From NCBI GenBank assembly GCA_002633005.1, contig NMRA01000040.1:1237805-1301804 (forward strand): a stretch of DNA of 64,000 nucleotides. Direction: 5' to 3'. The position numbers were made by a program, and so were the translations under genes. The notes under the pieces were generated by a model. That model saw only the letters and a list, made by a program, of their open reading frames with translations. It had not been told where the DNA came from and searched no databases. Positions 990 to 24,210 of this stretch are shown here, in pieces. The stretch's first letter is position 1. Each line of letters begins with the position of its first letter. The stretch is from Phoronis australis. Its lineage: Eukaryota; Animalia; Phoronida.

Positions 990-2553
990 AGACCCTATTC
1001 ACGCCGACAGGAGCCGTGTTCCAAAACGAGGGTCGCTACGATAGCTCTGTTGGCTTATTGGCATAGTTCTGTGTTTCAGTCCGTTTTGTTCCGCGAACGG
1101 CTTGAAAAATACGGACACGCAACTGTCTGCTTTACAATCTCTAAAGACGTTGAGATTCGGAAGCGTTGGGTCGTTGCCATACGCCGCGACGAAGCAAAAT
1201 TTGTCCGTGTAAAATTTATAAATATTTTTGAAAAGTTAGATCATATTTTGTAGCATCTCGGTCAGTTGTCAAGCATCATAGTAACGACCGGAGAATGGGC
1301 CAGCCAGGCTGTGTTTTCATGACTACGGATTTAGGGGGGCGAATTGCTGACTAGCACACGTGCGCAACCAGGGAGTCTTGTGGGGTGAATAAACAACGCA
1401 TAGGCGCTGAATGAACCCCGTTTACCGTTTTTTTTTCCAAAAAGGACAGGGTCCTCAATCCCTCAAATTTGGGGCCCAATATCGGCCCTATTCCCCTCAC
1501 AAAAATATTGAAATATCAGGCGAAATTCTCCCCACGAGGCATAAAAATTACCCTAATGAAAAATCTCTCTGAGGTCACGTCACCTGTAACCGCACATGTG
1601 ACAATTTTTAAGAGCACAAAAGGCTACTTAAAATTGAGACAGAGCCTATGAGAGCTTGCAACAGGGCGGGGGTGCTATTGGGAGGTAGATTGTTCCCGCC
1701 CTCACTCTGCGAAAAAATCGCTTCTCAGTAGGCACTGGTACCTTTCCCCTCGGATGAACGAGGCCCCTGCAGAGACATGATAACTATGATTGCATTGTCC
1801 AGTTAACTGAAATTGAGTTCTAAAACGAGGTTATGTTTTGGACGAACGAATTAGGTGTTTTAATTTTAAAATTCAACTTGGTCCAGATTGATATTTGAAA
1901 TCTAACACATGAAATAGACGTAAGAATTGTTACAACCAAGAAAGCAGAATTGATGGTCAAATAATTTTTATTTTCAATTACGAGCCTGGTTTTTTATTTT
2001 AATAAAAATATATTTCATAACATCAATTATTCTTTCAGATCAATGACAAATCAATTGTTAGTCCCAGTGAGTGCATAGGATCAGGCTATGCTTGATGTTA
2101 ATATTCGTGATCAACAAATTAAACCAGATGTGACTAATCCACCACTGTCGAATATGTCTTCAACTCTTCAACAATACAAGCTGATGACCTGTCCGCGTAG
2201 AAAGTATTTTGATCAACAATTTACGAGAAAAAACGTAACCCTGCATTCAACATAATACCTAATGCGTAACACTACGATCGCCGGAATTTGGCCATGTTTA
2301 CTTTTCATGTTTCGAACCTAGTTTTCCGAAAAAAAAATTAAATCCTTTCGTCAGACAACTCTTTGGCGCCTTAACTTGTTCTCTAATGTAATTTTCTACG
2401 TCTCTGTGGTTAATTGTCGACACATCATTAAAATTTAACATCCAGGTTGGACTCGAAAGACCGGCTATTTAACTCACGCAATGTCTGCTTTCGCTTTGTT
2501 TATCGCAGTGAGTCTCGCTTTGGATTTTAATGTCCGCCGCGTGAATAGGGTCT
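990..2553 (+). mobile_element. Non-autonomous TIR DNA transposon, ISL2EU-like (PIF/Harbinger group), with a THAP remnant
   Basis: Perfect 15-bp TIRs AGACCCTATTCACGC (990-1004) / GCGTGAATAGGGTCT (2539-2553). AT duplication at 988-989 and 2554-2555 (a TATA reading is also possible). Internal THAP fragment KDVEIRKRWVVAIRRDE at ~1140-1195. Host ORF1 rejoins in frame on excision. Confidence 0.8.
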
Positions 2554-2682
2554 ATACAGTTGACAATATGAATGAGATTCCCACCTTCAGTGAATTCTCT
2601 ACTTTCACGCATTCGCCATGTTTACAAATACGCATCGAAAACGAGGCGAGCAGATGTGACCTAGTTCCGCCTTTTATCAAGC

Positions 2683-2817
2683 ATGTTCTGTTGTGTGCCG
2701 CGTTGCAGCAGTTCATCAAATAAGTGTAAACTTTCGTTTCATAAATTCCCTATGGATGAATCTTTTCGTCGTAAATGGATTTGTAACATTCGAAGGGATC
2801 CTGGAAGACATTTCAAG
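2683..2817 (+). pseudogene. THAP zinc-finger exon 1 of the transposase gene; the rest is deleted
   Basis: Translates as MFCCVPRCSSSSNKCKLSFHKFPMDESFRRKWICNIRRDPGRHFK, then an AAG|GTAAAT donor. A probable exon-2 acceptor TTACAG|GTTAAC at ~3156 is followed by non-coding sequence. Confidence 0.85.
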
Positions 2818-3706
2818 GTAAATGAAGTGCTGAAATAAATATTTTATCGTCTCATATTTACTTAACATAATTCGTACCGATCAGCTGAGATTGATCGAGT
2901 GATATCTGCCGACTTGTCTTGATCATGTGTCAGTTCACTGTCGCAATTTAACATAGGGAAGCGTTTGCATATGAAATTTATGTAATTTTAGACTTAAAAA
3001 CAATTTTCGGATGCCTGCATGAGTCTGGTATTACAAAAACTGTCTTGTCATGTAGTAATCTAAAATCTCTGTTACATGTGCGGTTGCTCAGATAAACCAT
3101 TGTCATCTAGCATTAGTCTACAGAAAAATACGTAAGCTATAATGATTAATTACAGGTTAACTGTCGGGACATTATAATTTTTGTAATATTGTAATATTTC
3201 AATTTAACTAAAGCGAAAACAAAACACCAGAAAACACTATTTCTTAGAAAAATTCTCATTTTGCTTTGATACCATCAAACTGTTTAAATCAAAATGTAAA
3301 TGACAATTGTAAATTTCCAAAAAAGCACCCATGGACATTCTTTCAGGGAGGGGCACTCTTTCAGAAATTCCTGGTTTCTTAGCCGATAAAGAAATTATCT
3401 TGTCCGGTGTTTAAGACTGTGCTGTCAACTGCCCTGTGACACTACTGAGATTGCATCTTGCATCGTTTCAATTCAAAAAAATCTATGAGACCCTTTATAT
3501 CAAAAGTAGATATTTCTTCAATTTGGGATAAAATGAGACACCCAAATGCAGTCAAATTAGCAGCATGGAAGTGTACAAAATGTGAAAACACTGGATAAAG
3601 TCAACAAACACATTCCTGTATTGCTTTGAAAATTTGTACAGTATTTACATATTTACATTTTTAACATGGACAAAATTGTGGAAAAACAGGAGAGCAAGGT
3701 TTAACA

Positions 3707-6366
3707 CTACTTCTTCAGTTTGACAATGGCTGGCAGGAAGTGATTAACAAAAAAACTATCCAACTTTCTTTTCATTTCCCGAAAGTAATCACTGTCCATC
3801 AAAATTCTCTCACAAAAGTACGTGACCCCACACGTAACAAAAAAGTCGCACCATTCTGTTCCCGTGATAGCCATTTGTCCAATGCATTGATCGTAATATG
3901 CATGGCTACGCTTCAGCTCCAACCCGTTCTCGCTGTCATTTAAATATGCAACCTCAGCAAGGGTTTCCTTGATGGAGCATTTCACCACCAAAAGTCCCCA
4001 CTGAGGTTGTCCATCAGGGTCAAATACGCGCCGATCAGGGCTGCACCCTAAATGACAAGCCGATGGGTTTATGACAAAGCCAATGTCATGAAGATCAACT
4101 CCAAACGTTTCAGAGTATTTTTTCGCAGCCACAGCCTCGTGGTCAATGCCATTTTGCATGGCTGGCGTACTGTGGACTTTTTTTTGTAAGCATGTCTGTG
4201 GCCAACTCCTCAAACTTGCTACGCCGAGCTGTTACAGACCTAAACTTCGACGCTGTTAGTCGCAGCTCGCGTAGCCTAAACCACTCGGGGCATTCGCTTT
4301 GCTTTCTTGTCTCTTGCTCGTACTGAAGTGACTCTAGTAACGTAGTTTGTAGAGACTTTAGCACAATTTTCTGCGCATCACTTGCTGCATCTATGTCGAT
4401 CTCCATGGGGGGTAGTCGGGGGATGTCCAATTCGGGGGGAGTGCAAGGACCCAAGAAAACCATTTCTGGGACTGATTTTTCTGGATATGATAATAACGAA
4501 CCCTTCACTACGGGTCCAAAGTTTGAGTCAACTAAGGATAAATTGTCGCTGACGTTCCAAATCTTTACCCATTTGGGCGGCTAACCTTGATTTGTAAAAG
4601 TGGGCATCAGCTGGTCGACCATGCTTGGCACCGTGCTGAGCGGCGTGGAAAGAGGGTTCCACAATGTTGACTTTACGCCCTCTTCCACCCGCTTGCGTTT
4701 CGATGAAGCTTCACCACTTGACGAGGGGAAGGCTGGCTTATTGACAATCACATCAGTGACAGGACGAGTTGCGAAGCCCTTTGTTCGTGGGGAATGGTCC
4801 AGGTGCATCGCTCGTCTGTTTTCGAAACAATTTATCTGAAACAGTAGTGCAACTTGATGTTGGCAGAATCCCCTTCCTGCAGTACACGAACAGCTGTGCT
4901 CTGTGACGTCAACACCATTGACATTTGTTAGTGTAAACTGAAAAAGAAAGTTAAGATTGAACTGGTAAGTTTGGACAACTATATTACCATGTTCAAAAGC
5001 AATTTATCTGGAAGTTTTGAGAAAAAAATTCACGCCAAAGCCAAATGACTGCTTTAAGTGTCAAACACATTCAGTCTCGCAATAACTTTCAACTGTCTTG
5101 CAAATTTTACAATTGTATCTTACATGGGTAACACCGCATTATCTCTGTGAGTTGTCACATTTTTTCAATATTGAAAGACATATTACCTAAACAAAATTAT
5201 TAGCCACAATAATTAAATTCCATGTGTTGCAAGACAACATATCCGTAAAAAGTAATGGTTGAAGCAGCCATGAACCTGCATATCCTCACAGAAAATGTAA
5301 TGTATAGTTCAAGTGATGTAACAGCTATACAACTGAACTTGTATCTTCTCATCAGCTCACGTGTGAATAGGTTTCATGTCTGTTGAAATAGAAGGTAGGT
5401 TTATAACTGCGTTACCTACTGAGAGTCACAGGCTAAATGACTAAAAGCAAGTACAAATACCTTAAGGGAATGTGGCTTCTCATTTTTCTTGAAACTTCTG
5501 TAGCAGCTGCACCTGACTTCATGACCGCTTGCACAGGCTCTCACTGAAAGAATCAGGAACGTCAAGTTATTAAAATTCAAAGCAACAACAGACAAATTGA
5601 TTCAGGTGCTGGATATGGAGTGATTGGAAAGCATGCAGAAGCTACAGCCCGGAGGACACTTAATCTCAATTTAGTGGGAATGGTAGAGACGTGCTGCCCA
5701 TATAAGTCATATTTTTCAGTGTTTTGGCATAAGTTTGGGTAGCTTTTCGCACAATTTTTGAAACTATAATTTGTGTGTCATTTCGCATTAAGTTGGAGTG
5801 CCCCCCCCTTCCCCCCTCCACCCGGGAGCTGCATATTTACCCATTAGACAAAAATGGGGTTACGTAATTCCCTATACAGAGTATGGACATAAACTCTTCT
5901 GCCTTTTAAATACAACTCTCGTACTCAATGCGATTGTCACTATCTTACTTAGGGTGATTGCAGAATGTGGCTTTGTTAAACTTTTGACGAATTTCCGACA
6001 GTCAGCACCAATGCAGTATATAGACTAAGGACTCGAGACCCGAATGACACAAAACTGACAAGAGCTAAAACCATGATTAAACTTCATCAAATTCCACCAT
6101 TTCTTCGATAGTTATAACTTTCAGAGCATAAAAACCGAAACCCACGTCTGTTTTCGTTCGTTTTGTGACGGGCACACTGTCACGGAAAGAAACCGCGGGA
6201 AAACTGCTGAATTTCTGACGACTCAAAAACTAAAACTTACCTTCTACGTTGTGAATATAATGATCCCAAAAGAACTTGATTATTTTTGGGAAATAGCGTC
6301 CACACTGGAAAGACTGATAATTGGTAAACGGTCATTCAATTTTGACCAAGCACTGGGAGCTTCCAT
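3707..6366 (-). pseudogene. SWIM zinc finger + YqaJ/lambda-exonuclease protein, 3 exons (6241-6366, 5461-5543, 3707-4937), frameshifted
   Basis: Exon 1 MEAPSAWSKLND...KFFWDHYIHNVE; exon 2 VRCSCYRSFKKNEKPHSLK; exon 3 SWIM CSCTAGRGFCQH, then QSECPEWFRLRELRLTASKF, AMQNGIDHE, HLGCSPDRRV, LLVVKC and YYDQCIGQMAITGTEWCDF. Introns are GT-AG. The ExK motif appears as VVK and several frameshifts are present. Confidence 0.9.
5648..5826. mobile_element. MITE with CCCGG...CCCGGG ends (animal EnSpm/CMC-like), nested in intron 1 of the YqaJ gene
   Basis: Starts CCCGGAGG, ends in a C-rich tract + CCCGGG. 2-bp AG duplication at 5646-5647 and 5827-5828. Confidence 0.55.
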
Positions 6367-6986
6367 TCTAATGCGTCGTGTAACCTCGTTTTCGAGCCGG
6401 GCGATTGCAGCGCCGCTAAAGCGTGAAAGTAGAGAATAGTGGCGATCAAGAACTCAAGAAAGATGCCATGCAGGGCACCGAACCAACTGCTGTTTGTAGA
6501 TTAGTGTTCGCCGCTAAGGTCTTGTAATTAAAAGTTTTGGTATTTGGTCCTGTTTTTTTTCTGTGCCCAATCTTTCCTCTTATTAGTTATGAGTCCCTAT
6601 TGTCCTCCTGTAATTTTTATAATTTTGAAAGGTGAAGACATATAATAACATGTCCTTAATCGGTTGCCTAATTTCTTTTATTTTCGTTTTGTTTATCTTT
6701 CCCTTTTTTCAGGTCTTCATGTTTTTTGAATATTTTGCTTCTAGCCTTTGTAGTGCAAGTACCATTATATCATTTGCTGTCAGATTGGTGTTGTTTCATT
6801 GCATGGGCCTCATACCCATTGAAAACTTAGTGTCGATATGTTTCACTGAATGTTTCATCAGAAGAATTTATTATTTATGTTGGTTTCGGTTGTTTTTGAG
6901 ATGTTTAGGACACACAGTGTGATTCATTTTGTAGTTAATGAGCAAGGTTGTATGGTTGAGTTTAGAAGTGCCTTAATTATCTTTGT

Positions 6987-7363
6987 ATGGTGAACAATTT
7001 AAAAATTGCATCTTTTAACTGTAGGGGTCTAGGAACTCTGTCAAAAAGACGAGATGTTTTCCATTATATAAGGCAGCGTGCATACAGTATTTTCTGCCTA
7101 CAAGATACTCACTTACTGTTGCGGAATAACCCATAATTCGAGCTCAGTGGGGATACGACTGTTTTTTCAGCCATGGTCTAAGTAATGCCAGGGATGTTGC
7201 CATCTTGTTCTGTCAATAGTAATTTTGAATTTAAAATTCTTTTAAATTGGATACTACAGGAAATCTCCTAATTTTAGAGCTTGAAGTAAATAACCGTTTT
7301 TCTATTTATGGACCAAACAAAGATAGCCCTCAATTTTTTAATGACATTTCACAGAAAATCGAT
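6987..7363 (+). pseudogene. L1/Tx1 ORF2 N-terminal APE endonuclease fragment
   Basis: MVNNLKIASFNCRGLGTLSKRRDVFHYI...IFCLQDTH, then after frameshifts IRAQWGYDCFFSHGLSNARDVAILF and IYGPNKDSPQFF. It stops abruptly near 7363. Confidence 0.85.
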
Positions 7364-8034
7364 ATGTAGTGAATGACACTTAGTAACAGAAGTGGTAGCC
7401 CAAGTGGACAATTTTCCACTTCTTTCCCAATTTTCCAAAAGAAGTGGCTTGTCATCCAGGTTCCTCATGGGAAGTCTAAGCACACTTTTTTCTGAAGTCT
7501 TGCAAAGATCATCCAAAGATGTACTGATTTTAAACAACAGTTTCCGATCAAGTTGCTCAGTTGAATCTTTAGACATGTTTGACAGGAAAGGGTTGGATTG
7601 TTGATAATCCTCAAATACTGAATACCCATGGTCAACTAACTCTTTGCTCCTGTTGGCTTCTTAGAAACATGGCTATTCAATCCATTAGTACATGTTTCTG
7701 TCTATCTTTAGACTGAGCAATGAGATTGCTGACATCCATTCTTGCTGATTTCTGCAGCTGTGTGAGTTTTGAACAAAACGAAATGATAATTAGAGACGGT
7801 GGTCACTGTCTAATGCACTAAATAATAGGAATGTTATTCAGTTGTTACATTCATCAACTTTTTTCGACCATGTCAGTGTCCTGTTGTTCGTTTCCCGTTT
7901 TTCCCAACAACAGGTGTATTCGCGTGGTCAAGTCATGACATTTGCTGTCACTGCCACTGGCACTGGTGACTGGTGTGTTCCATCTGGCTAACTACGGGCA
8001 GCGAAAAGGTTCAAAATGGACACCAGCGCCAAAT

Positions 8035-8320: not shown

Positions 8321-11110
8321 CAGAGGGCGCTGTCCCAACTCAAGAAATAGTTGACGTCACGAAGTCATGAGCCCCACAATGAGCACAAAAATTGCAAAAA
8401 GTTGTTTTGGTGGTCTGTTGCAGTGGAGAATTTCTTTCATAGGACTGTTCTCAATTTGTCATCGACCATTCTTAAATATATTTATGGAATCGTGATGCGT
8501 TTGCTTGTTTAAACCAAGCTGCCAAATGCTAGATTGAACTGTTTCACGAACACGAACACGTACGTAAATAAGTATTCAAAGCTTGGTTTGGCCACCCCGC
8601 CAATTAATTGTTATTCCATAATTTGAGGTCAAACCGTTAATATTATGACCTGCAATCATGTGTGATCAGGTTTGTTACTTTGTGATTACGTGTTGCTGGG
8701 TTATCCTCTTCTTTGACGAAAGTTGAAATTGATGTGGTCCTGTATTCCCCGTACTAACGAAGTCAGTTTTGCAGTGCACAACATAGGCCTACTTTTTGTT
8801 TTAAAGTTTGAAAAACACCGTTTATGTCACTTTCTTCAATCATGTTTCTCAAAATATCGTTGAAAATGAAACACCTCGGTAGCTTCAGTTTGAGTTACTT
8901 TCATTTGCTCATTTGTAGTACGGTACAACCATTTTTCCTCTTTGTGTCAATAACACTCTGCATTACATACATGTACTGAGGGTCACTGTTGTCAAAATTG
9001 CAACAATCTGATTCAATGCTGTGGCATTATACCGGCACAGACATTATATGATTTTGTTTCATATGAAATTATCATAACCTAGGGAGTCTCGTTGTTGACG
9101 GTGGGACTGAAATATCTGTCACATGGTTTTCAGCACCTTGCATGATTAATTGCCAACACTTGACAGAGTTTATCTGTATGGATCTCATCTTTTACGATTT
9201 CGAGGCCAGACCTCTACCCACAGTCACAAAACTGCGGGGAAGCAGCGATTAGTATTTTTGGGGGAAGGGACCTCGAAACCGGATGNTAAAGTTATTTTAT
9301 TTGAATTCTTATCAAAAATTACTATTAAACGAATAACTAGTGCAGGAAGCATGCAACTGTATTTTATTATAGAAATGTTTTGGAAATGAATAAAGTCACC
9401 GTTGCCCCACCTGTGTTCAACCGGGGGCCCGGTCTGCTATCTCTGTACTCAGACTCATACTTGAGATTTCATACTCAAAATCGTGCTCACTGGAGTAGTA
9501 CTCGAAAAAGCGTATTTAATGTCGCATTTCGAGTAGACTACAAACGTAATCATATCTGAGAATCGTACTCGAGTTGCTATGAACCACCTACTTCTGGTAA
9601 AGTCACTGAACGGGAAAACGCTGTCATGACGTCAGCCGGAAACTCCAGTCGATATTTTTGGGCCGCAGTTGTTTGATTACTGGTCAACCCCTGTTCTCTC
9701 TTGCGTAGAACCCATTGCCGTGTAGGCATACGCTGATGTCAAACCTTTGATACTGTATCTTACCGGGATGTATCATGTTAGCTGACATTTGGCGCGTGAG
9801 TTAAAAACACTACATGTAGCCTACAGGCATTCAGAGTTCATCATTGAACGGGACGAGACGTCTACTTATAAATCGGCAAATAAAATCTGGAATATCATTC
9901 GGGGATTGAGGAATTATCGATGACTAAACTATGATGTGAAATCTGACAGGGAAGCAAATTGTTTTTTTAACTTTTCTCGAATCGTAGTAAGGACTTTAAA
10001 ACTTGGCGGCAATGAAGTGCGGTGATACGGCTGGTTAAGATGAAGAAGATTTAAAATGAAAACTATTGTCTCAAGCGCTGAGATACGGTATGAAGACTTA
10101 AATTTTCCAAAGATCTGCTGTTTCTCTCAGTGGTTTTTCGATATTTTCGTAGCCCAAGTCAAAAGTTTTCCTAAGCTTAACACTAACAAGACGATTAAGG
10201 AACACCTTGACATATTACATGGCTTTTGGCTAAAGTTTCCTGTTGTAAAATTAATTTAAGAGGAGTGACTTTCAATGCGGTAACTGTGCAATCAAAAAAT
10301 GACTTTGTTTGGGGACACGTCCGCCTATACCAGACCATTAACATGACGCTGTTATTAGCTAGCCAATGCAGCCTGAAAAACAATTTCAAAACATATCTTG
10401 TCTTATTTTGGCCTCATCTGTGTACATTAATGCTGTTTTATTGCACTCGCTAGAACTCGCTTGAACAGGTGCGGCTCACTCAAACCAATGCTGCCAATGG
10501 CTGTTGGCATTCCATAGACTAAAATTCAAACAAAAAATCTTGTTTCAGTTGCACGAAACATTTGCAATAACATACAATAATACTGCCAAAAGACACCTTT
10601 ACATCAGAATATAAATGAAAGACTTGTCGTATTCTATTGCCTAAGAAAACGAATCTAGACAACAGCTGAACACAAGGACTTCAGATAATATAGCAAAACG
10701 TTCAGCATAAAGATGACGACAAGCACATAAAATTAGCATATTTACATAAATTAAAGTTTGTACATATTTACATAAATGTGCTTATGAAAGCGTTCATCAC
10801 CTTCGTGTTGACCATTTGGCTTAAAACACAGGCGGCATAATTAATATTCACCTCATTGTGTTCTATAGGCAAGGCCACTACAGCTGTAACTTAACTAAAA
10901 ATCTAGACAGTCTGCTTGCTAACATGGAAGTTCGCAGATTCTCTTACATTACACCAATCTTGTAAAACAGCAGCTAAATGTCAACAAACGGCCTCACTTC
11001 ACTATGCCACATATTACACTGGCCAAACAACTGCACACTCACCCCAATATATTCAAATGGAGATTAAAGAGCTACAGTCCATGCACTCCTCCACTGTAAC
11101 CAGGTCAATA

Positions 11111-11376
11111 TTACAGACCATTTGATTGGTTCCCTATGACCCCAACCACATTTGATTGGTTCCCTATGACCACATCCACATTTGATTGGTTCCCTATGAC
11201 CACATCCACATTTGATTGGCTCCCTATGACCACATCCAATTCACAGGGAGACTGTCTCTCTTGGTCGGCCATAAGTGTGTTCAACACAGCTATATTTACG
11301 CCCTCTTCAGTCACCACATCCCCTGTGACGGAATACTCAAGGCCATTATAACCAATACTACTCTGGTCATTACCAT
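11111..11376 (-). CDS. Exon 7 (terminal): ends in four 10-aa repeats DVVIG(N/S)QSNV
   Basis: Acceptor TGTCATTTCAG| in phase 1, matching exon 6. Stop TAA at 11111-11113. Confidence 0.65.
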
Positions 11377-14300
11377 CTGAAATGACAAAAATTTTCATTA
11401 AAACTGCATTTTCCTTTTGAGGTCTGCTTCATGAAAATGACTGGTAACGGAAGTTGTCTACCCTTACACTTCACAATTACTCAGAAAATGCTAAGCAAGG
11501 AATTGTGAGCCAATCACAGTCTAGAAATACTTAACAGAAATTTTCAGTAACTGACATTTCTCAGAGACTTTGCAATTTTGCTTAAGTGAGATTTAATTGT
11601 TTTTTTTTGAGAAATAATAATGTGGAGCAGAAAACCAATTTCTGTCGTGGGTGTTAAGTCACTGCTTAGCGATTCAAAAAGCCAAAGTCAATACTCGGTC
11701 CCTTACCTCTAACACGTCATAAACTGGTCTTCACCATGATTGGACATTATTTCCAGTACTATGGAAAACGTACCGAGAGAAAAAGCTTCAGAAAATAAAC
11801 AACATATAGATGGCCGGCCCTTTGGAAATTTCAACACTGCTTTTGGTGATTTGAACAACTGAATATACGACAAGATATTTTAAAAGGAAAAGCATAACAT
11901 TTCAGTGTTACCCTAATCCTTTATTATTAAAATACAAATCCCTGTTAAATCAAAGGAAACAGCATCTATAACAGGTTAAGGAAACAACATAACTGCCCTC
12001 TTCAGTTTGAAAGACTGAACTACATGTTGGTTGATTGTTGATGGTGCAATCAGGACTAAGTGGAAAGAACATGCAGCTGTGAAATCTGAACTGGGCCATT
12101 ATTACTGGAAAATGTGTTCAGCCAGCAACACATTAATGCATTCCCAAACTGTAGGCCGTATTCCAAAGCATTTAATAGAGGTCTCGGCATCTCACATCTT
12201 TCTATATGTGTTCGCACAAGTTGGTATTTATTACTCTCCTAGCAACAACAACATACATGAATAAATGTAGGTTGTTTACACGCGAATATGTGGTTTACAT
12301 TATTGCACTGTGCTTTTGTCAGACACTGTGCCATCACAAGACCATACGTTGTTGCAAACAAATGAGAGGACAATGAGGAAGCTGGAACCGACACTAAGCT
12401 GACGTGGTTCTCAGTTGCACATGCGTATTTCAATCAGCAAAAAGAGATGGTACCTCATAATGATAACAATAACAGCACACTCACTGTCACATGACCCAAA
12501 TTTCTCCATACATTCTTCCACCATGTCTTTCAAATGTGACAGCCGTAGCAGATCCAACAACTTGATAACCTCCCCATACTTGCCCACATTCAGAACTCCC
12601 TTCTGTTGCAGCTGAATGAGTAAGTCGTAAGCTGTCCTGATGTTCAACAACTCTGACAGCCTGCTTGAGGAGGAAACAATTCGGTATTACAGTTCACTAG
12701 TACAGCAAAATTTAGAGGGTGAACATATTACAATATTTTGAAAAACAAGAGCAATGCAACTCCTTAATAAGCATCACTCACAACTGCATCACAAATTGTA
12801 TGATTATAGGGGAATTTGTTACTGTTATAAAAATAGCCACTAGGTGGAGCTGAATATGTTGAATTAGTTATAAGTAAGGGGCAGAACTACAAAGAACACA
12901 TCTACACGGTTGCCAGCCATCTTTATTCCTTCCCACAATTCCCTAACAATCCCATAATTCAAAGCACACAGGGTATACAGAAGCGAACAGGTACACTACA
13001 CATGAATACAAAATTGAAGGAAAGAGATGCTATACAATAGAATCAATCTGAAAATAGGACGGCTTCATCATCTCCCTAATAGAAATCTATTTGTTAAGCA
13101 GAATAGAACTGTCTCAAGGGGACACTGTTGGCATGGCTACAAAATTAAACCTATTTCGTAAAATTGGTCTCGTAATAATCCTTACCATTACACGATTCTT
13201 TTTCCATTACTGACAAGAAAATTGAAACCCTTACCAACTCAAGAAAACGCTTTATACATTATTAGGTTTAGCCAACCTTAAAATTGTGAATATGAGCATC
13301 TGACACACTGCCCTCCCATTTTAGAGACTGGTAAAGGAAATGGAATCAACACAGTAAGAAGACCAATTTCAAGAGATGAAAGGGCTAAAATCAGTTCTTA
13401 GTTTTTTTAGCCAACTGAACAGGTCTGAATGCAGCTTGAAACGATAACCCACCCTATCCAAGGACGGCACACCTCACGTAATCTGATGAACTCGTCGGTG
13501 TCCAGGTGAAAGTCAAATGCACGCAACAGCTTCTCATGCAGATCCTGGCTTGTAACTCTGTCTAGAAGGTCAGGCTGAAACCAAATACTAATGTCATTAT
13601 AAAGATCCATTCATGGGGAGCAGTGCCATTTTGAGGTATTATGGCTCACTTCTCTAACACTAAAGGGTTCTTTCACTCTTATTGTTACATTTTGAAAAGA
13701 AATGAAAAGAACAATTCTTAAAAGTGGAAGTGTTTCATGATGAAGAACCAAACAATGCAAACACTGTGTGTCTGGCTGGCTGAATAACTTAGGTCTTAGT
13801 TTTATTACATGTTATGAACATCATTGCTTTGCTCAAGTCTAGTGCTATGTACGAGGCTGGGACTAACCATGAGAAGGTTTCTTGGCAATAAGACATGGTT
13901 AAAACATCACCAAGACCCATTTTGACCTATTTTGACTAGGGGACAATTTATGACTCATTTCATAATGAAAAATGGTCTAAATTAAAAGTTGGCTTTGTGA
14001 CTGAAGATGAATTTATAGCCACTTTATAAACACACAACAAGAAGACATTTGCCTCACTGTGAGTTACATGATGACCTCGCAGTGACCTCGCATCTCTTAC
14101 CTCACACACCGTATTCTTCCTCATGCGCAGATCACCTTTTCTTACAACAGCCGGGTAGACACAGACCAAGTCCTCTACGGGGGCAGGTTTCCATGACAAC
14201 ATCACCTCGAAGTTGGACATGTACAGAAGGTGAGGTTGACACTGTGTACAGCACCGTTGAAACCACTGTGTGGCTCCCTCACATCTTGGTGATCTGTGAA

Positions 14301-17300
14301 CCATTGACTCACAGCCAGCGATGATCAGTTGTTCCACCAACGTACTGCTTCGGAGTGACTGGTGATTCCTGTCTGAAGCCTCTTGTCCATAGCACATTCT
14401 GATTTTGTTGACTATCTTCACGATTCTGGCTACGGACTCATGGGTACGGGACCAGTGGTTACTGATGCCCAGTTGGGCCAAGTCAACCAGGCGGTCATGA
14501 ACGCGCAATGTCCAAGTGTTCGTCTCCTCACACAAGGAGACCATCTTTAACAACGGCTGTCCATTGACGACAGCATCAGATGGGAAACCAAATTCGAGTT
14601 TCGCCGGGTCAAGTAACGTTGTCCCTGGCAACAGACAGTCCAAGATCTGCTTACATGTCAGTAGCTTCTCATCAGAAGACGATTCTTCCGTTACCATGGA
14701 AATACCAAACATACAGTGCTGCTTCTCTATATCACTGCAGGTCTCCTTTTGACATGATGGGAAAAAGTACTCAACGATGGCTGAGAAACAGGTTAAGTCA
14801 ACACTTGGATGGTGCTCTTCAACTATGTGCTTTAAATCCACCGAGGCGTTGCAAGCTTCAACCAAGTTCTCGACAATCCTGTGAAAGAGTTAAAGGGAAC
14901 TAATCAACTTGTCGGACAAAAAATGCATTTTTGCGATTATTGTTGCAAGCTTTTTGGTTAGAGCTGAGGAGGCAAAGTTCAGAGGTGAGGAGGCAAAGTT
15001 CAGAGGTGAGGAGGCAAAGTTCAGAGGTGAGGAGGCAAAGTTCAAAGGTGACGAGGCAGTGTGGCCTAATGGGATAAGTGCCCACTCCCTTTACTCACGA
15101 TCGCGATTCAAGTCCCACTTTAGCACATTGCTAGACCCTTGAGTAAGGTCTCTAGCTACTCAGCTTGGATTTTACTACATATTGATCAAAATGCTTCCAG
15201 GTGGCCAGTGCCATGGGCCCAAGTGAGCGGCCTGCGTATGTCTGATACAATGTGAACCAGACCAACAGCAAATCAAGGCATCTAACAAAGCATTATTCTG
15301 TGACTGCTGAACCAGTGAGTTTGAATCCATTTCAGGCCAGATCTCAATCACTTCCCCCATCGACTGTTTCACTTTAAAAGAGCCTACTGACTATCAACTA
15401 TCCCTGACATTCAATCGGAAACTAAGATTATATATATATATATCTGCAGTTTACAAAACCAAATGCTTTCCCCAGCTATTAAGAAAATCGGCAATAAAAC
15501 AAGAAATTTGTTTTTTGGATAGTTCAAGTGTTTTCACGGGATAAAAATCCAAGCCTGGCTCAAATTCTTCATCATGTTGTTGTCTCCCAATCCTCGTTTC
15601 TGCAACAGTCCATATTATGATCACTCGTGTACAGTAGATCAAGACATGTAAAGCTATTAAAGTGGCTACAGAAACACCCTCCGTCAATGAAACTAACTTT
15701 TGATTGTGGCCGCTAACTATATTGCAATAGAAATGATCTCATCTCGTCCCTTATTGAGATGAGATGTGATTTTCGGTCAAGAATACACAAAACTGACACT
15801 TCGTTATTGCTCGAGACAATAATGGGCAAACAAATATGGCATGGCAAGTCAACAGGTGGCGCTGATAGCCATTCAAGAGAACACGCAGACGTCAACCACA
15901 GTTGCTAGCTTTCTCGCAGGACACTTGAATTAACATAGTGTCAAAAGCTGTTTTCAAAGTTATCTGTTTGACAAACATTAAGCAAAGTAAACACTACAGG
16001 AACGTCTCAAGTCCTGGCACAATTCAACACTTACCACGAAACAGCGTGGGTATCTTTAAAAGGCGTTAATGAGCTCTGTACTGGTTTTGGGGTTGTGCCG
16101 CTGTCGTTCACAGTATGCGACACATGATCAGATCTCTCCGCATTTACCTGCTGCTTAAGGCAAGGCTGTGCTGATAGCTTGTTAACAGTATTAGACACAG
16201 GCAGATCTGTAAAATATAAACCGCTTTGCACATTTAGATGTTACAGAGCACAATACGAGGAGACAAATTTCATAATAGGAAGTGGTTTTAGTCAACTATT
16301 TTGGAGCAACAGAGAAGTAAGCAGAGAACTTAGAATCCTTCTGCAATAATTGTAAGGGCCCGATCGTGTTCGTCTGGAAATTCATGGAGTTGCAAAATAA
16401 AATAATTTGAAAGGGGAGACAGGACAAAAACTTCAATGCAATGGCTCACATGACCAAAGCATGGCAGAGAGAGAGAGCTTTTGATGTCAATTTTCAAAAT
16501 GAAAGAAACTTGACTGGCATACATCAACTGGAGAACTTCAACTATGTGGTTGTGTAAGCTGAAATGCACAAGGGTCGGAAAGGATAGCGTGATTGGTTAA
16601 TACTGATTGTCAGCATTCTCTCATCCGGCTGGAAAAAGAACCCAAATGACAGCCACTGGTAATTTAGGTTCATATTAAAAGGTCAATATATTCACATTCC
16701 AAACTACCACGCTCCTGAAAATGAGCCCCGGATGAACACTGCAACAGGTTTAGTGTGCACGTTCACACGTTCAGTGGAATAGTTCCAGACATGTGGACAC
16801 TCTTGCACAGATTCAGGCTAATGCCAATGACATGTTGATTGTACAGTAATTTTTAATTTATTCAGCACACAATGTGGCTGACCAGTTCCATTCTGTCAAA
16901 TTTCTTCACAAAAAATTAAAATTGAGGAAATTTTAGTCTATTATTAGTGTGATTTGGAGTATGTAGATGTGATAAAACAACTTTTTGAAGTGAAATACCT
17001 TTATTTTTGTGCAAAAAAGTGGAAATTACCGTCATCAACTAACAACACCTGTGAACCATTCATAAATTGACTAAAGCGAAAACATCTTCTCGACCTGGGG
17101 TATAGCATTCAGTATTACTCAAACTATAATGAAAAAGTACAAGATATTACCTTTGATCAGTACTGTAGATATCTTATGCAGTGAACTGCGTCTTTCCTCA
17201 GTCTTAATGGCAGGGACTGGATTACGTGAAGCTGATGTTGGAGCAATATGCCTTTCTTTTGGCGGCCGTCTTTTTGATGCCACCCTTTTTGGGGGGTTGG

Positions 17301-20300
17301 GCACATCAAATATCGTTGGCACCGCATTCCAATTCAGTCTATTTTTATGAATATTTGTAAACATCATGTCTTCAAAGTGATCTGCGCACAGCCTGAAACA
17401 ATTGTTTAAGAAGGCGGCATCTTTCTTCATCAGGTCAGCCCTCCTGCTGTTGATGACCCAACGCTTGCACCTAACATAAACAAGATGGAGGACATGGTAA
17501 AATCACACAAATACAAGGGACACAAATCTTACAAGAAAAAATACAAGGGAAACAATTCTTACAAGTATATGGCATTTCACAGGGCTTGGAATGAACAATG
17601 ACAAAAAAGGAAAAATTTCCGCAAATAAATGGGTCTGTGTGATAGAAACGATTTTGTGTTGTAAAACTTAAGTGAAATAAATGTTTTTGCATAAATAAAG
17701 TCAAATTAATGATAAAAAGAGAGCAAGAAGAGAAAACTTGGTATCAAATAAGAGGAAATTGAAACTAAAAAGATGAAATCCTCTGAAAAGAGGAAAACTC
17801 CAATCCATGATTTCAGCAACAACGAAAAAAGCTACATTTCGTCGTGGCTCAACCAGGGACTTTCTTTCTCTTGAGTCACTCAATATGTTATCTAATGGAG
17901 GTTCGCGGGATGTGTTCATGATATTCAGGCGGGTGACCTCTGTTTGACCTCAAAAATATAGACTGTAATGGCATTCAGTCTACCATACCGTTGATGTAAC
18001 AAAGGAAAATTTGAAAAAAAGTTTATTGCAGGAGTATTACTTCGAGTGGGAAAGACTTCTGGTGTCAACACAAACGGTAAACAGTAGCACCATCTCAACT
18101 GGCCGCAGTAGACAGTTATTCAAATCACCTGGCACCAGTAGTGTAAACATCACTGTTCTAAAAAAGTGGGAGTATTTGTTCAAGCTGAAGAGTTAGACAT
18201 CAACAGTCAACGATCATGAAATTCGTGGTTGTGAGGCATAATTCCCTGAAAACCTTCCGACTGGGCAGGCGCTCTCATCAGCCACTCGCTGTTATGTACT
18301 ATAATAACTTTATTTAGAATCATAAGTGCGGGTGATTAAAGGTGCCTGTGTATGGAAGGCCTTAGCCTTGGTACAAAGCTGTATACTAAATATACAGCTT
18401 TGCGCCGATGTGGGTAAAAAATGACCAGATAAAATATGACACAAAATTAGTGTCATTAAAAACTACCCACTTATTTGAGTAAACAAAATTATTTTCTGGT
18501 TTTGGAAAAATTGGCATTCTAACGTTATTCTGCTGCTAAAGTTGTGGCGCGATCTGCGTCGGCTTTCAGCGCCATGAAATATAGTGTCACTTATTAAGCA
18601 GTTTCTTTTTTCACCGATTCTTTAATCAACTGTCACAAGGTTGCGTACACATCACAACAAATTATGGGAACTGGTTTCACTTCAGTATAACTTTTTAGAA
18701 TTTTGAGACTGAAAAACCGAATTTCAGAATAAATTTTGCTGCTGCCAAGCTATCACTATCTCCCGAGAGATGTCGCAAAAATTTAAGAAATGGCGCGCGT
18801 GTGTGTCACGAGTGTACTGTTTTCGAAACGACGACGTAACTTTTCTTTGTAAGAAAAGGCGGAGGGCTACGCAATAAAATGACGTTCATTAGATTGTTTT
18901 GCACTTAAACGCCTGTAATGGGCACGGTGAGCGTATGTTGAATCCCAGATTTTGCAAGCAACCCGTCCGGTCTTTAGCTTTACATGTCCATACAGGTTTC
19001 ACAGCAAGGTGACGAGTAGAACTACCCTGGCTGTGTGCAATTTCGGGGTCAACGGAAGAAAAACACTCAGTGGTACCTAGCTGTATTTTGATGACATTCT
19101 TCATACGGCTATGTCTATGGGATGACTACGTCAGTACTGTTTACAATGACGGGGCACAAGACTACAATCTATACATCACTGCATGAGCTGCATTGAAAAG
19201 AGTATGGATAGAGGTTATTGCTTACAATATGACTCTATCAACGTACATTTAGTGAAGCAGCCATTTTTAAAAGTGCGACACATTTTGGCAGGATTGATAA
19301 CGGTTAACCTAGAGTGAAGTTGGTTCGATGCACAATGTGTTTCTGCGTTAGCAGATTTTACCCTGCCAGTGATATTAGTTATCGTATTACCTAATTCCAG
19401 TTGTTTTAAACAGTTTTTGTCTCCGAGACAACACATGTCTGCCATATAACATGAGCCGAAATCATGTCCGCGAGATGTCACGTGTTTTCGAGGAAGATAT
19501 TTGTCCGCGAGAACACGCACTCTCGTGTTTTTTCTTAAGAAGTTTTGAAGAGGCAATCCTTTATAAATTACTATTACTGTTTTTTAATAAGAGTTTCCCT
19601 AATGTGCCACGCGGTCAGTCTTCAATATACTAGCCAATTTTGGGGTCTTTGACACACACGTGATCTTTGTAGTTATCATTCCTGCCAAGAGGTCTTGCAG
19701 TTTGAGATCGGCTGTCAGAAAAGAACACCTCGTAAAAACAAAAAATGCATGAATAAGGAGAGCCTTATCTGTACGAGTAATACATTTTTGGATTCACCAT
19801 GATCACCATGGTGAGTGGATTCAGAAAATATTCATATAATGTATGTACGTTAATTGAGTCGGACTGTAAACAGTAACCTGGATGGGAATAAGCAAAATTC
19901 AGTCCGAAGACTTCGAAGTTCCCGCGACTCACACACCGGCGACAAGGACGAATGCCATTGCCGCTGCGGCATTGCTCATGCCTCAGTCCACAGGCGTCCT
20001 CAGCTGACAGTCCCCAATACACTACATATAGTAGTATTATATGTAGTGTATTGGGGACGCGATCAGAAGCTGAGGACGCCTGTGCCTCACTCCCTCACTC
20101 AGTCATGCCATGGACTGGTGCCCCAGATTCGGCGGTGTGGAACTTGTGCAAAACGGAACGCATATTTAGTAAAATGTACTCTGTTACATTACTCCTACCT
20201 CTCCGGATCTTTTGGAAAACGAAAAAAGGATTGTGTCGCGTGCTTTCTCGAAGTTTTTAAGCAATTAATTGCGCAGCACCTAATACCAGATCGTCTCGGA

Positions 20301-20305
20301 CCCAT
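11111..20305 (-). CDS. 7-exon gene for a ~646-aa THAP / winged-helix-like+Cys-rich / DED / RHIM-like-repeat protein: join(20199-20305, 17151-17470, 16035-16206, 14101-14878, 13453-13574, 12485-12660, 11111-11376)
   Basis: All six introns are GT-AG with pyrimidine tracts. Phases 2,1,2,0,2,1 match on both sides of every intron. Total 1941 nt = 646 codons + stop, with no internal stops. The THAP domain is split across exons 1-2 and the DED across exons 5-6. Confidence 0.75.
11119..11238. repeat. 30-bp tandem repeat x4 (coding on the minus strand)
   Basis: CATTTGATTGGTTCCCTATGACCACATCCA units with 1-3 substitutions. Confidence 0.95.
12485..12660 (-). CDS. Exon 6: DED helices 3-6
   Basis: LSELLNIRTAYDLLIQLQQKGVLNVGKYGEVIKLLDLLRLSHLKDMVEECMEK. 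Acceptor TCCTCAAGCAG|, donor ACA|GTGAGT. Confidence 0.8.
13453..13574 (-). CDS. Exon 5: DED helices 1-2
   Basis: PDLLDRVTSQDLHEKLLRAFDFHLDTDEFIRLREVCRPWI(G). Acceptor GGTTTCAG|, donor GG|GTGGGT. Confidence 0.75.
14101..14878 (-). CDS. Exon 4: central domain (RFX-like winged-helix pattern followed by a Cys-rich putative Zn-binding region)
   Basis: 778-nt open exon, acceptor CTCTTTCACAG|, donor GAG|GTAAGA. Contains FSAIVEYFFP...KQHCMFGIS and MCYG...RSPRC...RCCTQC. The domain identity is inferred. Confidence 0.75.
14960..15059. repeat. 21-bp minisatellite x~4.7 (intron 3)
   Basis: AGAGGTGAGGAGGCAAAGTTC units. Confidence 0.95.
16035..16206 (-). CDS. Exon 3: low-complexity linker
   Basis: Acceptor TTTTACAG|, donor GTG|GTAAGT. 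Phases 1 and 2 bridge exons 2 and 4. DLPVSNTVNKLSAQ...THAVSW. Confidence 0.65.
17151..17470 (-). CDS. Exon 2: C-terminal half of the THAP domain (THAP12/PRKRIR-like) plus a basic NLS-like tract
   Basis: CKRWVINSRRADLMKKDAAFLNNCFRLCADHFEDMMF...LNWNAVPTIFDVPNPPKRVASKRRPPKER. The C2CH ligands and AVPTIF box are complete. Acceptor TTATGTTAG, donor AAAG|GTAATA. Confidence 0.9.
18374..18402. repeat. Short perfect inverted repeat (12-bp arms, 5-nt loop)
   Basis: CAAAGCTGTATA-ctaaa-TATACAGCTTTG. Confidence 0.8.
19989..20084. repeat. 96-bp fold-back (21-bp + 17-bp perfect stems) in intron 1 of the THAP-DED gene
   Basis: GTCCCCAATACACTACATATA (20010-20030) pairs with 20038-20058. CACAGGCGTCCTCAGCT (19989-20005) pairs with 20068-20084. 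Confidence 0.9.
20199..20305 (-). CDS. Exon 1: N-terminal half of the THAP domain
   Basis: MGPRRSGIRCCAINCLKTSRKHATQSFFRFPKDPE(R), donor AG|GTAGG. Too short to appear in the ORF track. Confidence 0.85.
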
Positions 20306-21754: not shown

Positions 21755-24210
21755 TCAATAAGCATTGGTTGAAACTTTAGTAAATCAAGCCAAAGCTGAT
21801 CACCACCACAAGCTTTTTAAAAAAATTAACAGTGCAAGCAAGAACTCCAAAGAATACTGGAACATCATCAATAAAATACGCGGCAGTCAACATCAATCTT
21901 CTTATCCAGTCATCAACCACAATGGTAACGTAGCCTCAAGAAGTAGTGACAAGTGTGACCTGTTTCTCAAATTTTTCACGAACAAAAGCCACATTACACC
22001 AACTGAAGTAGGTAACTTTCCCTTTCTTCGTGAACGTTGTCTCAATCAACTGTCTGGCATCCCCGCTAATCAAACTGATGTCCGGAAGTATCTCAATGAA
22101 ATTGACCCAAATAATAATGATGGCACAGCTTTAATCACCAGTAAGATGATCAAAATGATTGCCAATGAAATTACCATACCCTTGACCAATCTGTTTAACA
22201 AACTTCTTCAGCTAGGTATATATCCGTCTTCTTGGAAACATGGAATTATGGTTCCTAAACACAAAAACTCCAAAACTGAAATTTCAAATTATCACCCAAT
22301 AATTTTATTTAACACCCTATCCAAAATCTTCGAGAAGATCATTGCTCAAAGTATTCTTACAAAACAACTTGATCTATCATCGTCAATTTGTTTTTTTTTT
22401 GCCTGGAAACAGCACCGTGGCACAATTTATTGAAATGGTACATGACATTCATTTACATTTTGAGAAGGGCGAGAGTGTCAGGTCCATTTTTCTAGATATA
22501 GCTTCTGCTTTCGACTGAGTCCCTCACGACCTTCTACTTCGCAAACTTCGTTCCTATGGCATTACTGGTAATCCTTTAATCATGATCACCTCATATCTCT
22601 CCGATAGAACATACAGTGTTCGTGTCGACGGCGTACTTTCAATTTTATCCCCCCCCTGGATTTGTAAACGCAGGTGTACCACAGGGTAGCGTACTGGGCC
22701 CTCTTCTCTTCTTGGTTTATATTAATGACCTTCCTGATAACCTGTCATGTAGCACATACATTTATGCAGATGACAAAGCGCTTTTTTACCCCTTCGCAGG
22801 GAGCATCCCTGAAAGTTCTTTGCAGCTTCAACACGACTTAAATAAACTCAGCTATTTGTCACAAGAATGGAGAATGAATTTTAAACCAGAAAAAAGCGTT
22901 GACCTCACCTTCTCCAAATCTATTAATGCTCTCTTCCTTGTTGACCCGTCTTATGACCTTAAACTTAATGATGAAATCATTCCTAGAAAACAGTCGCACA
23001 GACATCTTGGTATACTGTTAGATGAAGAACTCTCATTCACACCTCACGATCGGGAGCTCGTACAAAAAACTCAGAAAATAATTAACCCACTTAAGCTTGT
23101 CTCCCGTCATCTGAATTCTACACATTTAGAAGTTTTGTTCAAATCATTTATACTTCCACACATCGATTATTGTGATATCATACATCAGTCGGTAATACGG
23201 GTGCACTCCAACATTTGGAGATGTTACAGTATCAAGCTGCCTTACTCATAACCGGAGCTTACAGGGGATCCAATAGTGTTAAGGTTTTGAATAGTCTCAA
23301 GTGGCCCAAACTGTCTACTCAACGCAATCTTCACACGACCTCATTTACTTTCAAAGTGATAAACAACGTCAACAATGCCTCCGTCAAAAAAATATTTGAT
23401 ATACACTAGACAAGGCCATCGTAGTAATTTGAGATCCTCCATCTCATATGCAATTCCTCCGTCGTTCAGTCAGGCTTTCAGAAAGTCTACAGTTATGATG
23501 TGCATCAACAACTGCAATTCTCTTCCAGTCTCTGTTAAGGAAAGCAACTATTTACGAGTATAAAAAATAATTTTAACTGTTTTTCACAATTTTGATAACT
23601 CAGCACCTTTAAATCAATTCTCCCTTCCCCGCGATAACGAAATAGCATTGTACAGATTAAGATGTGGTCTTTTCCTCAATTCTGACAAGTTTAGGCATAA
23701 CTTTAGTAATGTTTCTCCAAACTGTAAATGTGGTGATCATCAATCTTATCCTCATATTTTCTTCATATGTCCCCTCATCGAGTACCTGAGATGCTCACTT
23801 TTTCGTGCACTCAATGAAAACCAATCAATTGTTAATGTTCTCAATTCTTGTAATAATATACCTACTAAAATTATATTATTATTGAATGGTAGTCCTAACT
23901 TTGACGTCGTTCTCAATGAATTCCTCCTAAACAACGTTAGCAAATTAATTTTTATGAACCGTTTATCAATATTGCTGCTTCTGATTTCCATACATGAATC
24001 TGTACATGTTTTTGTTTTTATATATTCGCAATAGCATATCTAAATATTGGGATACTTATATTAGATACTACTTAAATGTATATACCTCTATCTATTTTAG
24101 TTTCATTTATGAATTGTCACGGTTTACAATCCAGATTTAATGCTTCACGATTTCTGGGTTTGTCATTATTTCTTTGCATGACTTGTGTATTCTTCAATAA
24201 ATATATATCA
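21755..24210 (+). mobile_element. 5'-truncated CR1/L2-group LINE, degenerate ORF2 reverse transcriptase
   Basis: Fragmented ORFs 21765-24034 carry YPSSWK, NYHPI..FNTLSKIFEKI, FLDI, GVPQGSVLGPLLFLVYINDL, YADD, HLGILLD and a C-terminal CKCG...HIFFICP. Multiple frameshifts. AATAAA + (TA)n tail at ~24196-24208. Confidence 0.92.

Follow-up and report, generated by a model that had tools for sequence, protein, structure and literature searches.

A spliced Phoronis australis gene joining a THAP domain, the front of a P-type transposase and a probable death effector domain

Host–transposase fusions in tetrapods draw on 55 host domains, with P and Kolobok types making up 21% of cases (10.1101/2020.05.07.082677). 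The word 'death' does not occur in the main text of that paper. In the fusions of Cosby et al., transposase DNA-binding and host domains lie on separate exons, the element's own acceptor is used and the catalytic core is often absent. The gene described here is alike in these respects, but differs in being of invertebrate type, in its probable death fold towards the C-terminus and in its transposon parts, which apparently stem from two donors. P-element transposase, THAP9 and the truncated 66-kDa and KP proteins also begin with a THAP domain and basic tail, followed by non-catalytic P-type sequence (PMC7776569). In contrast to P-element transposase and THAP9, the present gene lacks the leucine zipper, HTH, RNase H and GTP domain, and in their place carries parts of another P-type clade (RFX winged helix, RWD-like domain and Cys cluster), together with a death effector domain (DED)-like segment. 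The P neogenes of Drosophila form a comparable class.

Single DEDs are found in DEDD, DEDD2, PEA-15 and FADD (PMC4558505), and DEDD has been described as a DED-containing DNA-binding protein (PMC2173221). Here, by contrast, the DED-like domain is close to the C-terminus, has no RxDL and probably no Phe in helix 2, and is accompanied by no death or caspase domain; any DNA binding would be that of the THAP domain. In literature searches by title or abstract opening, we found no transposase–DED fusion, no THAP architecture with a DED and no paper combining the two domains; the supplementary tables of transposon–host fusions (PMC12062965; Cosby) lie outside this scope and could hold one. The supplement of PMC10027918, covering 370 THAP genes, carries no death, CARD, caspase or RFX label, and that of PMC2575513 has no THAP.

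Gene structure, expression and the THAP domain

The stretch of DNA analysed, 64 kb in length, is referred to below as the window. Within it, seven minus-strand exons join into a spliced frame of 1941 nt, encoding 646 aa and a stop, and all six introns are GT-AG, with phases 2, 1, 2, 0, 2 and 1. The features are as follows.

20199..20305, minus strand: exon 1, ATG and N-terminal half of the THAP domain (C10, C15, FP)
17151..17470, minus strand: exon 2, C-terminal half of the THAP domain (W40, C64, H67, F68, AVP), basic tail (aa 93-112) and start of the linker
16035..16206, minus strand: exon 3, linker rich in Ser, Thr and Pro, which also contributes two bases to the first codon of the winged helix (Trp); 6 and 17 reads at its two junctions
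14101..14878, minus strand: exon 4, in the three parts below
14686..14878, minus strand: exon 4a, RFX-type winged helix, aa 200-264 (AF2 model)
14398..14670, minus strand: exon 4b (about aa 270-360), RWD/UEV-like domain of alpha+beta type, common to RFX-headed P-type transposases
14101..14397, minus strand: exon 4c, Cys cluster (C362, C399, C410, C413), then about 40 unaligned residues and a phase-0 donor
13453..13574, minus strand: exon 5, which from about 13538 encodes helices 1-2 predicted for the DED-like domain, in a register taken from the exon 6 Pfam match
12485..12660, minus strand: exon 6, the remaining predicted helices (3-6) of that domain, with LSHL at the expected place of RxDL
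11111..11376, minus strand: coding part of exon 7, ending in the stop codon; a low-complexity acidic tail that contains a minisatellite in frame, with four 30-nt units at 11119-11238
10400..11110, minus strand: 3' UTR, from stranded read depth; reads extend at least to 10400

Junction reads were summed over three raw RNA runs bearing the same species label, with about 18-19% of the data covered. Every junction of the predicted seven-exon, 646-codon gene was crossed: 34 reads joined exons 1 and 2 (0, 9 and 25 per run), followed in transcript order by 6, 17, 21, 16 and 9. At the last junction, 11 additional reads showed a one-base shift with an identical skip length, which we interpret as an allelic change of the final base of the exon. 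Reads within exons were nearly all first-mate-plus, and the transcript is therefore likely a minus-strand RNA; read depth was of the same order across exons 2-7, and expression was low (about 0.4-22x). The Logan contigs of a fourth RNA run did not cover the gene. We conclude that the gene is real, expressed and spliced, with all six junctions present in stranded short reads, which do not in themselves prove a single full-length transcript. Because all junctions are present in the reads, we reject the possibility that the THAP exons and the DED exons are separate genes.

The N-terminal C2CH THAP domain, part of the original prediction, was borne out. Pfam PF05485 matches exon 1 at model positions 1-29 (23.0 bits) and exon 2 alone at 29-87 (35.9 bits, cut-off 23.9), and the spliced frame holds all the ligands (C10, C15, C64 and H67) and the invariant residues P31, W40, F68 and P87. 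Exon 3 has no Pfam match. The tract previously described as NLS-like is indeed basic, with seven K/R and one D/E in aa 93-112. It may, however, be the basic minor-groove tail of the THAP domain instead, since it adjoins that domain directly and by eye resembles the tails of THAP-P-transposases in Table 1 of PMC10027918. The proposed THAP12/PRKRIR (THAP0) subtype is recognizable by eye in the RRADL segment (row 151 of that table), but P transposases from Hydra and Capitella, and a C2H2 protein of Aplysia, begin with it as well (PMC10027918, Table 1), and so it does not point to THAP12. No Pfam match to a hAT-derived body was found among the seven exon frames. THAP12/PRKRIR has a C-terminal body derived from a hAT transposase, whereas exon 4 of our gene is P-type; orthology with THAP12 was rejected.

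Exon 4 and the P-type transposases

Exon 4 (259 aa), the largest part of the protein and previously unexplained, represents the first, N-terminal third of a transposase of the P-element type. It has 41 relatives at E<=1e-3, with 23-34% identity. At E<=0.01, RFX_DNA_binding is found in 12 of these, TNP-like RNase H in five, PHD in four and THAP or DED in none, most relatives being apparently single-exon gene calls in which an upstream THAP exon could not show. A family HMM built without the query gives 141 bits over aa 215-419, and a profile of seven transposase relatives 101 bits over aa 215-417. Among four full-length relatives, the complete set of four P-type catalytic motifs is present in three, while the remaining one is without one Asp. 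Neither our protein nor any of the six frames of the window contains the RNase H DDE core with its GTP-binding insertion, and an active transposase was rejected.

RFX-headed P-type transposases (P0001, P0005, P0027, Argopecten XP_069123679 and the loci L001 and L002) are homologous to exon 4 over aa 215-419. In contrast to them, the gene stops before the HTH and RNase H (homology ends at about aa 419 by both HMM and tblastn), has lost the basic wing surface, and has gained a THAP and a probable DED. Literature searches on RFX with transposase returned no paper on such a clade. No relative was found in viral contigs; the Atlas held nothing for the peptides of the window, and relative P0033 gave low-TM RFX/D5 clusters only.

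A single-sequence AF2 model of exon 4 was unusable (pLDDT 39). When an alignment of 33 relatives was supplied, the modelled winged helix matched RFX5 (8zjr) with a VIA Z of 8.0 (rmsd 1.9, 64 aligned) and the exon 4 model matched RFX1 (1dp7) with a VIA Z of 7.5; the family profile matches RFX5 at 1e-8. Foldseek gave nothing at E<=0.001, RFX5 ranking second with probability 1.0, and the winged helix of the gene alone has no Pfam match of its own. The net charge of helix 3 and the wing is -2 in the gene (two K/R and four D/E), as against +3 to +10 (6-12 K/R) in 28 of the 28 relatives long enough to score. Judged by these residues, the winged helix keeps its predicted fold without the basic DNA-facing surface. 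Exon 4b is modelled with a pLDDT of about 90 and matches RWD/UEV-type chains at a middling VIA Z of 5-6, so that the name RWD-like is tentative. The Cys residues of exon 4c are conserved in both alignments (A1 and A2) and form a predicted zinc site.

The DED-like domain of exons 5 and 6

Trimmed exon 6 has a sole Pfam match among 24,736 models, and this is to PF01335, the family predicted beforehand (model 32-80 of 82, 14.1-14.5 bits, E 0.04-0.06, cut-off 35.9). As the match starts at model position 32, exactly the room of exon 5 is left in front. PF01335 did not match the untrimmed 91-aa frame or exon 5 alone, and phmmer with exon 6 against the PDB gave no DED at E<=10. Exon 5 alone weakly matches F-box-like, Reovirus_L2_N and DUF7716; the Reovirus_L2_N and F-box-like matches, and one to ADAMTS_C, were rejected as weak and under the cut-off.

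The exon 5 and exon 6 peptides co-fold with a score of 0.48, a weak pass, the best of three controls scoring 0.01. Partner pLDDT was at least 72, the runs agreed in at least 94% of contacts, and each half lifted the pLDDT of the other from 36-48 to 72-75. Of 78 solved pairs, 51 attain the co-folding mark, as do 2 of 108 mismatched ones; with scores of 0.60 or less, just 5 of the 78 solved pairs and all four passing mismatches attain it, and the halves of a split domain may pass through their likeness to solved structures. We conclude that exons 5-6 are probably a DED, sub-threshold per exon. The predicted C-terminal DED is supported by the exon 6 match and its register with exon 5, but because that match lies below the cut-off and exon 5 has none, it is likely rather than proven.

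PMC4558505 defines the RxDL motif and names a hydrophobic patch (F25/L28/K33 of FADD) as the DED–DED surface. In our protein the E/D-RxDL triad is incomplete: Glu487 is kept, and aa 540-543 read LSHL, as originally noticed. In an ungapped register anchored on this patch, we take the positions of FADD F25, L28 and H9 to be Glu493, Arg496 and Arg477, by which the helix-2 Phe of the patch would be missing. The DED-like domain therefore appears degenerate, its usual docking residues apparently lost, which makes a nuclear gene regulator likelier than a caspase trigger.

Probable origin and role of the fusion

The protein is a three-part chimera of a THAP domain, the N-terminus of an RFX-headed P-type transposase and a probable DED, apparently with two transposon donors. 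As no THAP was found in the relatives of exon 4, a second element is the likely source of that domain. At locus L002 the winged helix is preceded by a phase-2 acceptor, the same as in exon 4, and no THAP was detected in the 5.1 kb upstream of this locus; the basis for two donors is this one element (L001 and L002 being near-identical copies) and two short, apparently spliced N-termini (P0024 and P0033). We infer both the history and the action of the gene from its parts. The THAP exons of one element would have been spliced onto the natural phase-2 acceptor of the transposase exon of another, and a new phase-0 donor beyond the Cys cluster would have joined the transposase part to captured host DED exons.

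In the 40 rows listed of 67, we counted 21 coding variants, 13 silent and 8 replacement, over 246 and 879 sites respectively. The resulting pN/pS of about 0.17 (binomial p 9e-5) is a within-species, read-based value, uncorrected for transition bias, that may mix alleles with close paralogues. The excess of silent variants points to host function, in agreement with the earlier view of an intact host gene. As in host–transposase fusions, the transposon domains and the probable host domain lie on separate exons and are spliced and expressed, and within the species the excess of silent variants indicates purifying selection. No orthologue of the fusion was found in homologue searches. Word-based searches with exon 4 (535-2000 aa), alignment A1 (633-2000 aa) and exon 6 (E<=10) were blank; these are weak negatives, the A1 search having missed even long relatives already known from the exon 4 search.

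The reading that we favour, at about even chances, is an expressed, likely domesticated, lineage-specific fusion of a THAP domain, the non-catalytic front of an RFX-headed P-type transposase and a probable degenerate DED, which likely acts as a nuclear DNA-binding regulator. The THAP domain and basic tail would bind short sites, plausibly relics of the parent element. The winged helix, now acidic, has probably lost its hold on DNA and would probably act, together with the RWD-like and Cys domains, as a folded unit for scaffolding or dimerisation. Self-association or contact with a nuclear partner, and not caspase-8 nucleation, would likely be the task of the DED-like domain, in a role analogous to that of KRAB or SCAN in vertebrate fusions. 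Of the two roles first proposed, a DEDD-like nuclear regulator fits better than a sensor, and coupling to caspase-8-type signalling is unsupported, given the lack of RxDL and, in the register given above, probably of the helix-2 Phe. The gene extends transposase capture to a probable death-fold domain and to a gene apparently built from two elements, with the splice site used still visible. It also suggests that a lineage-specific regulator can take over a death fold as its effector module, and adds evidence for a P-type transposase clade with an RFX winged helix; its weight is limited by a single species, low expression and a sub-threshold DED.

We think it unlikely that the protein is a DNA or transposon sensor, in which THAP recognition of element DNA would cluster the DED and thereby recruit or block FADD or a DED caspase. 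The DED is the sole Pfam match of exon 6, molluscs, annelids and brachiopods possess FADD and DED caspases (PMC11463336), and the RLRs of lophotrochozoans, which sense nucleic acids, have had DEDs added to them (PMC8998645). However, the sites read by THAP would be expected to be fixed ones on the chromosomes, a poor match for the task of a sensor. The reading of LSHL for RxDL and the residues presumed to replace F25, L28 and H9 also speak against it, although invertebrate DEDs may use other surfaces. We are just as doubtful of a cell-death checkpoint on transposon activity, whereby the fusion would bind P-like elements and recruit or block a DED caspase through a non-canonical DED surface; assembled in this way from two DNA transposons and an immune DED, it would be the first host–transposase fusion to couple recognition of transposon ends with death-fold signalling. 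Improbable, too, is a role in repressing transposons similar to that of the 66-kDa and KP proteins of the P element, with THAP at element ends, the transposase N-terminus poisoning active RFX-P transposases and the DED oligomerising. Truncated THAP-bearing P proteins do repress transposition (PMC7776569), and the gene retains non-catalytic transposase parts only, with Cys cluster and fold intact; yet the nearest transposases found are just 23-34% identical, and no single cognate target is evident, because THAP and exon 4 seemingly come from different elements.

There is a slim chance that exons 5-6 form a death fold other than a DED, or a helical bundle of no relation to it, leaving a THAP–transposase neogene without a DED. 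The roughly 14 bits of exon 6 against a cut-off of 35.9, the weak matches of exon 5 and the PDB search would accord with this, but the lone Pfam match is to the family foreseen, its start leaves room for exon 5, and the halves raise each other's pLDDT. We regard as very unlikely an accessory or cargo gene of a large multi-copy mobile element, the DED acting as a decoy against host death signalling. Element relics are abundant around the gene, which has a LIM-homeobox gene next to it, and in 4 of 41 relatives PHD accompanies the RFX-RWD-Cys module, so that the module has been shuffled elsewhere too. Against a cargo gene, no convincing terminal inverted repeats, which P-type elements have together with an 8-bp target duplication, surround the locus among the 25 longest of 131 pairs, and exact 11-mers common to its 5' and 3' sides are near chance (17, about 15 expected), a comparison that old or short ends would escape. 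Within the listed rows, the exons have no loose ends besides splice joints and exon 2 depth is not excessive, and the six introns are ordinary, with old repeat insertions. The neighbouring transposon genes are broken, as had been claimed, with disrupted RT (21.8-24 kb) and SWIM/YqaJ (3.7-5.0 kb) frames.

Gene structure and expression

The seven exons, joined through six GT–AG introns, give a frame of 646 codons with a single stop at its end. That they form one gene, as originally predicted, is borne out by stranded RNA reads that span each of the six junctions (34, 6, 17, 21, 16 and 9 reads, in order, from exons 1–2 to exons 6–7); a further 11 reads at exons 6–7 are displaced by one base and likely represent an allele. 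These reads come from three stranded runs carrying the same species label, with ∼18–19% of reads examined, and reveal the spliced gene through short reads, junction by junction. Because the junctions form a continuous chain, separate genes for the THAP exons and the death effector domain (DED) exons are unlikely. Exon depth was low (∼0.4–22x) and comparable in magnitude across exons 2–7, depth at exon 1 being confounded by a repeat close by, and read depth extends the 3′ UTR to 10400 or beyond. The contigs of a fourth RNA run did not cover the gene.

Sense-strand reads (∼0.5–4x) run on past exon 3 into intron 3 (window 15419–16034), where a stop codon follows immediately. They could represent a 200-aa THAP-only form or, since they show many differences, reads from a diverged repeat. 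Two of the repeats below (20010–20058 and 17577–19111) have deep RNA coverage on two strands.

Repeats (window coordinates)
11119–11238, 30-nt minisatellite, four copies, translated in the C-terminal tail
14960–15058, 21-nt array, 4.7 copies, intron 3
17577–19111, further short multi-copy repeats
20010–20058, 24-nt hairpin repeat, intron 1

The THAP domain and the exon 4 module

Exons 1 and 2 together cover the Pfam THAP model end to end, with every zinc ligand and invariant residue present, in agreement with the predicted complete N-terminal THAP; the basic tail that follows may also serve as an NLS. By eye the domain is of the human THAP12 subtype, but it is also like the THAPs of Hydra and Capitella P-transposases and of an Aplysia THAP–C2H2 protein (PMC10027918, Table 1). 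Identification of the gene as THAP12 was rejected.

The original prediction overlooked exon 4. A full HMMER search with it found 41 relatives (23–34% identity), the two bearing names being scallop proteins, and a profile made without the query scored 141 bits to aa 215–419. Pfam found RFX_DNA_binding in 12 of the 41, TNP-like RNase H in five and PHD in four, with neither THAP nor DED in any. P-type catalytic motifs are present in four full-length relatives, with an Asp missing from one of the four. An AF2 model (33 relatives in the alignment, mean pLDDT 82) contains an RFX winged helix (RFX5, Z 8.0, rmsd 1.9, 64 aligned; RFX1, Z 7.5) and an RWD/UEV-like domain whose matches are no better than middling (Z 5–6), followed by four conserved cysteines. 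The net charge of the helix-3/wing segment is −2, versus +3 to +10 in all 28 scorable relatives (the other five of the 33 were too short), and for this reason the winged helix is probably no longer DNA-binding. Homology to transposases does not reach the HTH or the RNase H, and a search of the six frames of the window found no trace of the core. Identification of the gene as a transposase was rejected. In four relatives (P0003, P0014, P0030 and P0034) the N-terminal transposase module is fused to a PHD finger, the catalytic core being replaced, which indicates that this module has been shuffled elsewhere too.

In L002, an apparently intact element near-identical to L001, the transposase exon begins at the same phase-2 acceptor as exon 4, and no THAP was detected upstream of it by tblastn or motif search. 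On the sequence of these few loci, THAP and exon 4 therefore likely derive from different elements. A 668-aa frame, head to head with the transposase, has weak Pif1-2B/UvrD_C matches and a PHD finger, and may be an accessory gene in this family of elements.

L002 (locus coordinates)
1099–3105 (−) and 5137–7980 (+), RFX-headed P-type transposase in a head-to-head pair with a 668-aa frame

The DED-like domain

The DED predicted in exons 5–6, which an intron interrupts, is partly upheld. When exon 6 was trimmed, DED was its sole Pfam match (model 32–80, E 0.04–0.06), although at 14 bits it lies below the cut-off of 35.9; no DED emerged from a sequence search of PDB or from a word-based one. Exon 5, which by itself has no Pfam DED match, fills the missing 30 model positions in register. 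The two peptides co-fold in ESMFold2 with a score of 0.48, versus 0.01 for the best control (partner pLDDT at least 72, contact agreement at least 94%). This is a weak pass: the mark was reached by 51 of 78 solved pairs and by 2 of 108 mismatched ones, scores of 0.60 or lower comprise just 5 of the 78 solved pairs and all four passing mismatches, and split domains may pass through resemblance to solved structures. We consider a DED very probable, and the alternative that exons 5–6 are not a DED unlikely.

The RxDL position reads LSHL, the atypical motif originally noted. In what we take to be the ungapped FADD register, the positions of F25 and L28 are here Glu and Arg. Two signatures of canonical DEDs are hence absent, RxDL and, by that register, the helix-2 patch, making canonical DED–DED assembly appear doubtful from sequence. 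F25 and L28 belong to the helix-2 patch in FADD (PMC4558505).

Function, selection and surroundings

The gene is real. It appears to work like the host–transposase fusion genes of tetrapods (10.1101/2020.05.07.082677), and agreed with them in those tests applied. DEDs are known to have been grafted onto lophotrochozoan RLRs (PMC8998645). The open-access literature yielded no paper on THAP and DED in one protein or on an RFX-headed transposase, and no orthologue was found by HMMER with exon 4 or by word-based searches with exon 4, its alignment and exon 6. In PMC10027918 (Table 1, row 71), Capitella ELT97641 is labelled THAP plus P transposase; its later part looks CARD-like by eye, possibly in a mis-joined gene model, and it offers a lead toward further THAP–death-fold fusions.

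We favour, with evenly divided confidence, a domesticated nuclear regulator, in which THAP would bind DNA, the transposase-derived middle would act as a scaffold and the DED-like domain would provide self-association or contact to a partner. A sensor or decoy coupled to caspase and a transposon repressor seem equally improbable. We give slightly less credence to cargo of an element: transposon remnants lie nearby, and no conspicuous terminal inverted repeats flank the gene. Of 67 variant rows, the 40 listed include 21 coding variants, of which 13 are silent and 8 replacement (246 silent and 879 replacement sites in exons 3, 4 and 6), giving pN/pS ∼0.17 (P = 9e-5, ignoring transition bias). Four of the eight replacements lie in the winged helix, compatible with relaxed constraint there.

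The adjoining transposon genes are broken, as originally noted, in both the flanking RT and SWIM/YqaJ frames. The region 987–5125 resembles what we take to be a decayed KolobokP-type element.

Surroundings (window coordinates)
987–1004 / 2539–2556, perfect 18-nt inverted repeat
1116–1223 and 2677–2796, two weak THAP-like remnants
3707–5003, SWIM + YqaJ nuclease gene, broken
21762–24034 (+), LINE reverse transcriptase, fragmented, upstream of the gene
30271–39753 (−), perhaps extending to 54700, LIM-homeobox gene with exons for LIM and the homeodomain

The DNA of the window is of animal origin, and the adjoining LIM-homeobox gene, presumably Lhx2/9-like, is a useful anchor for synteny.
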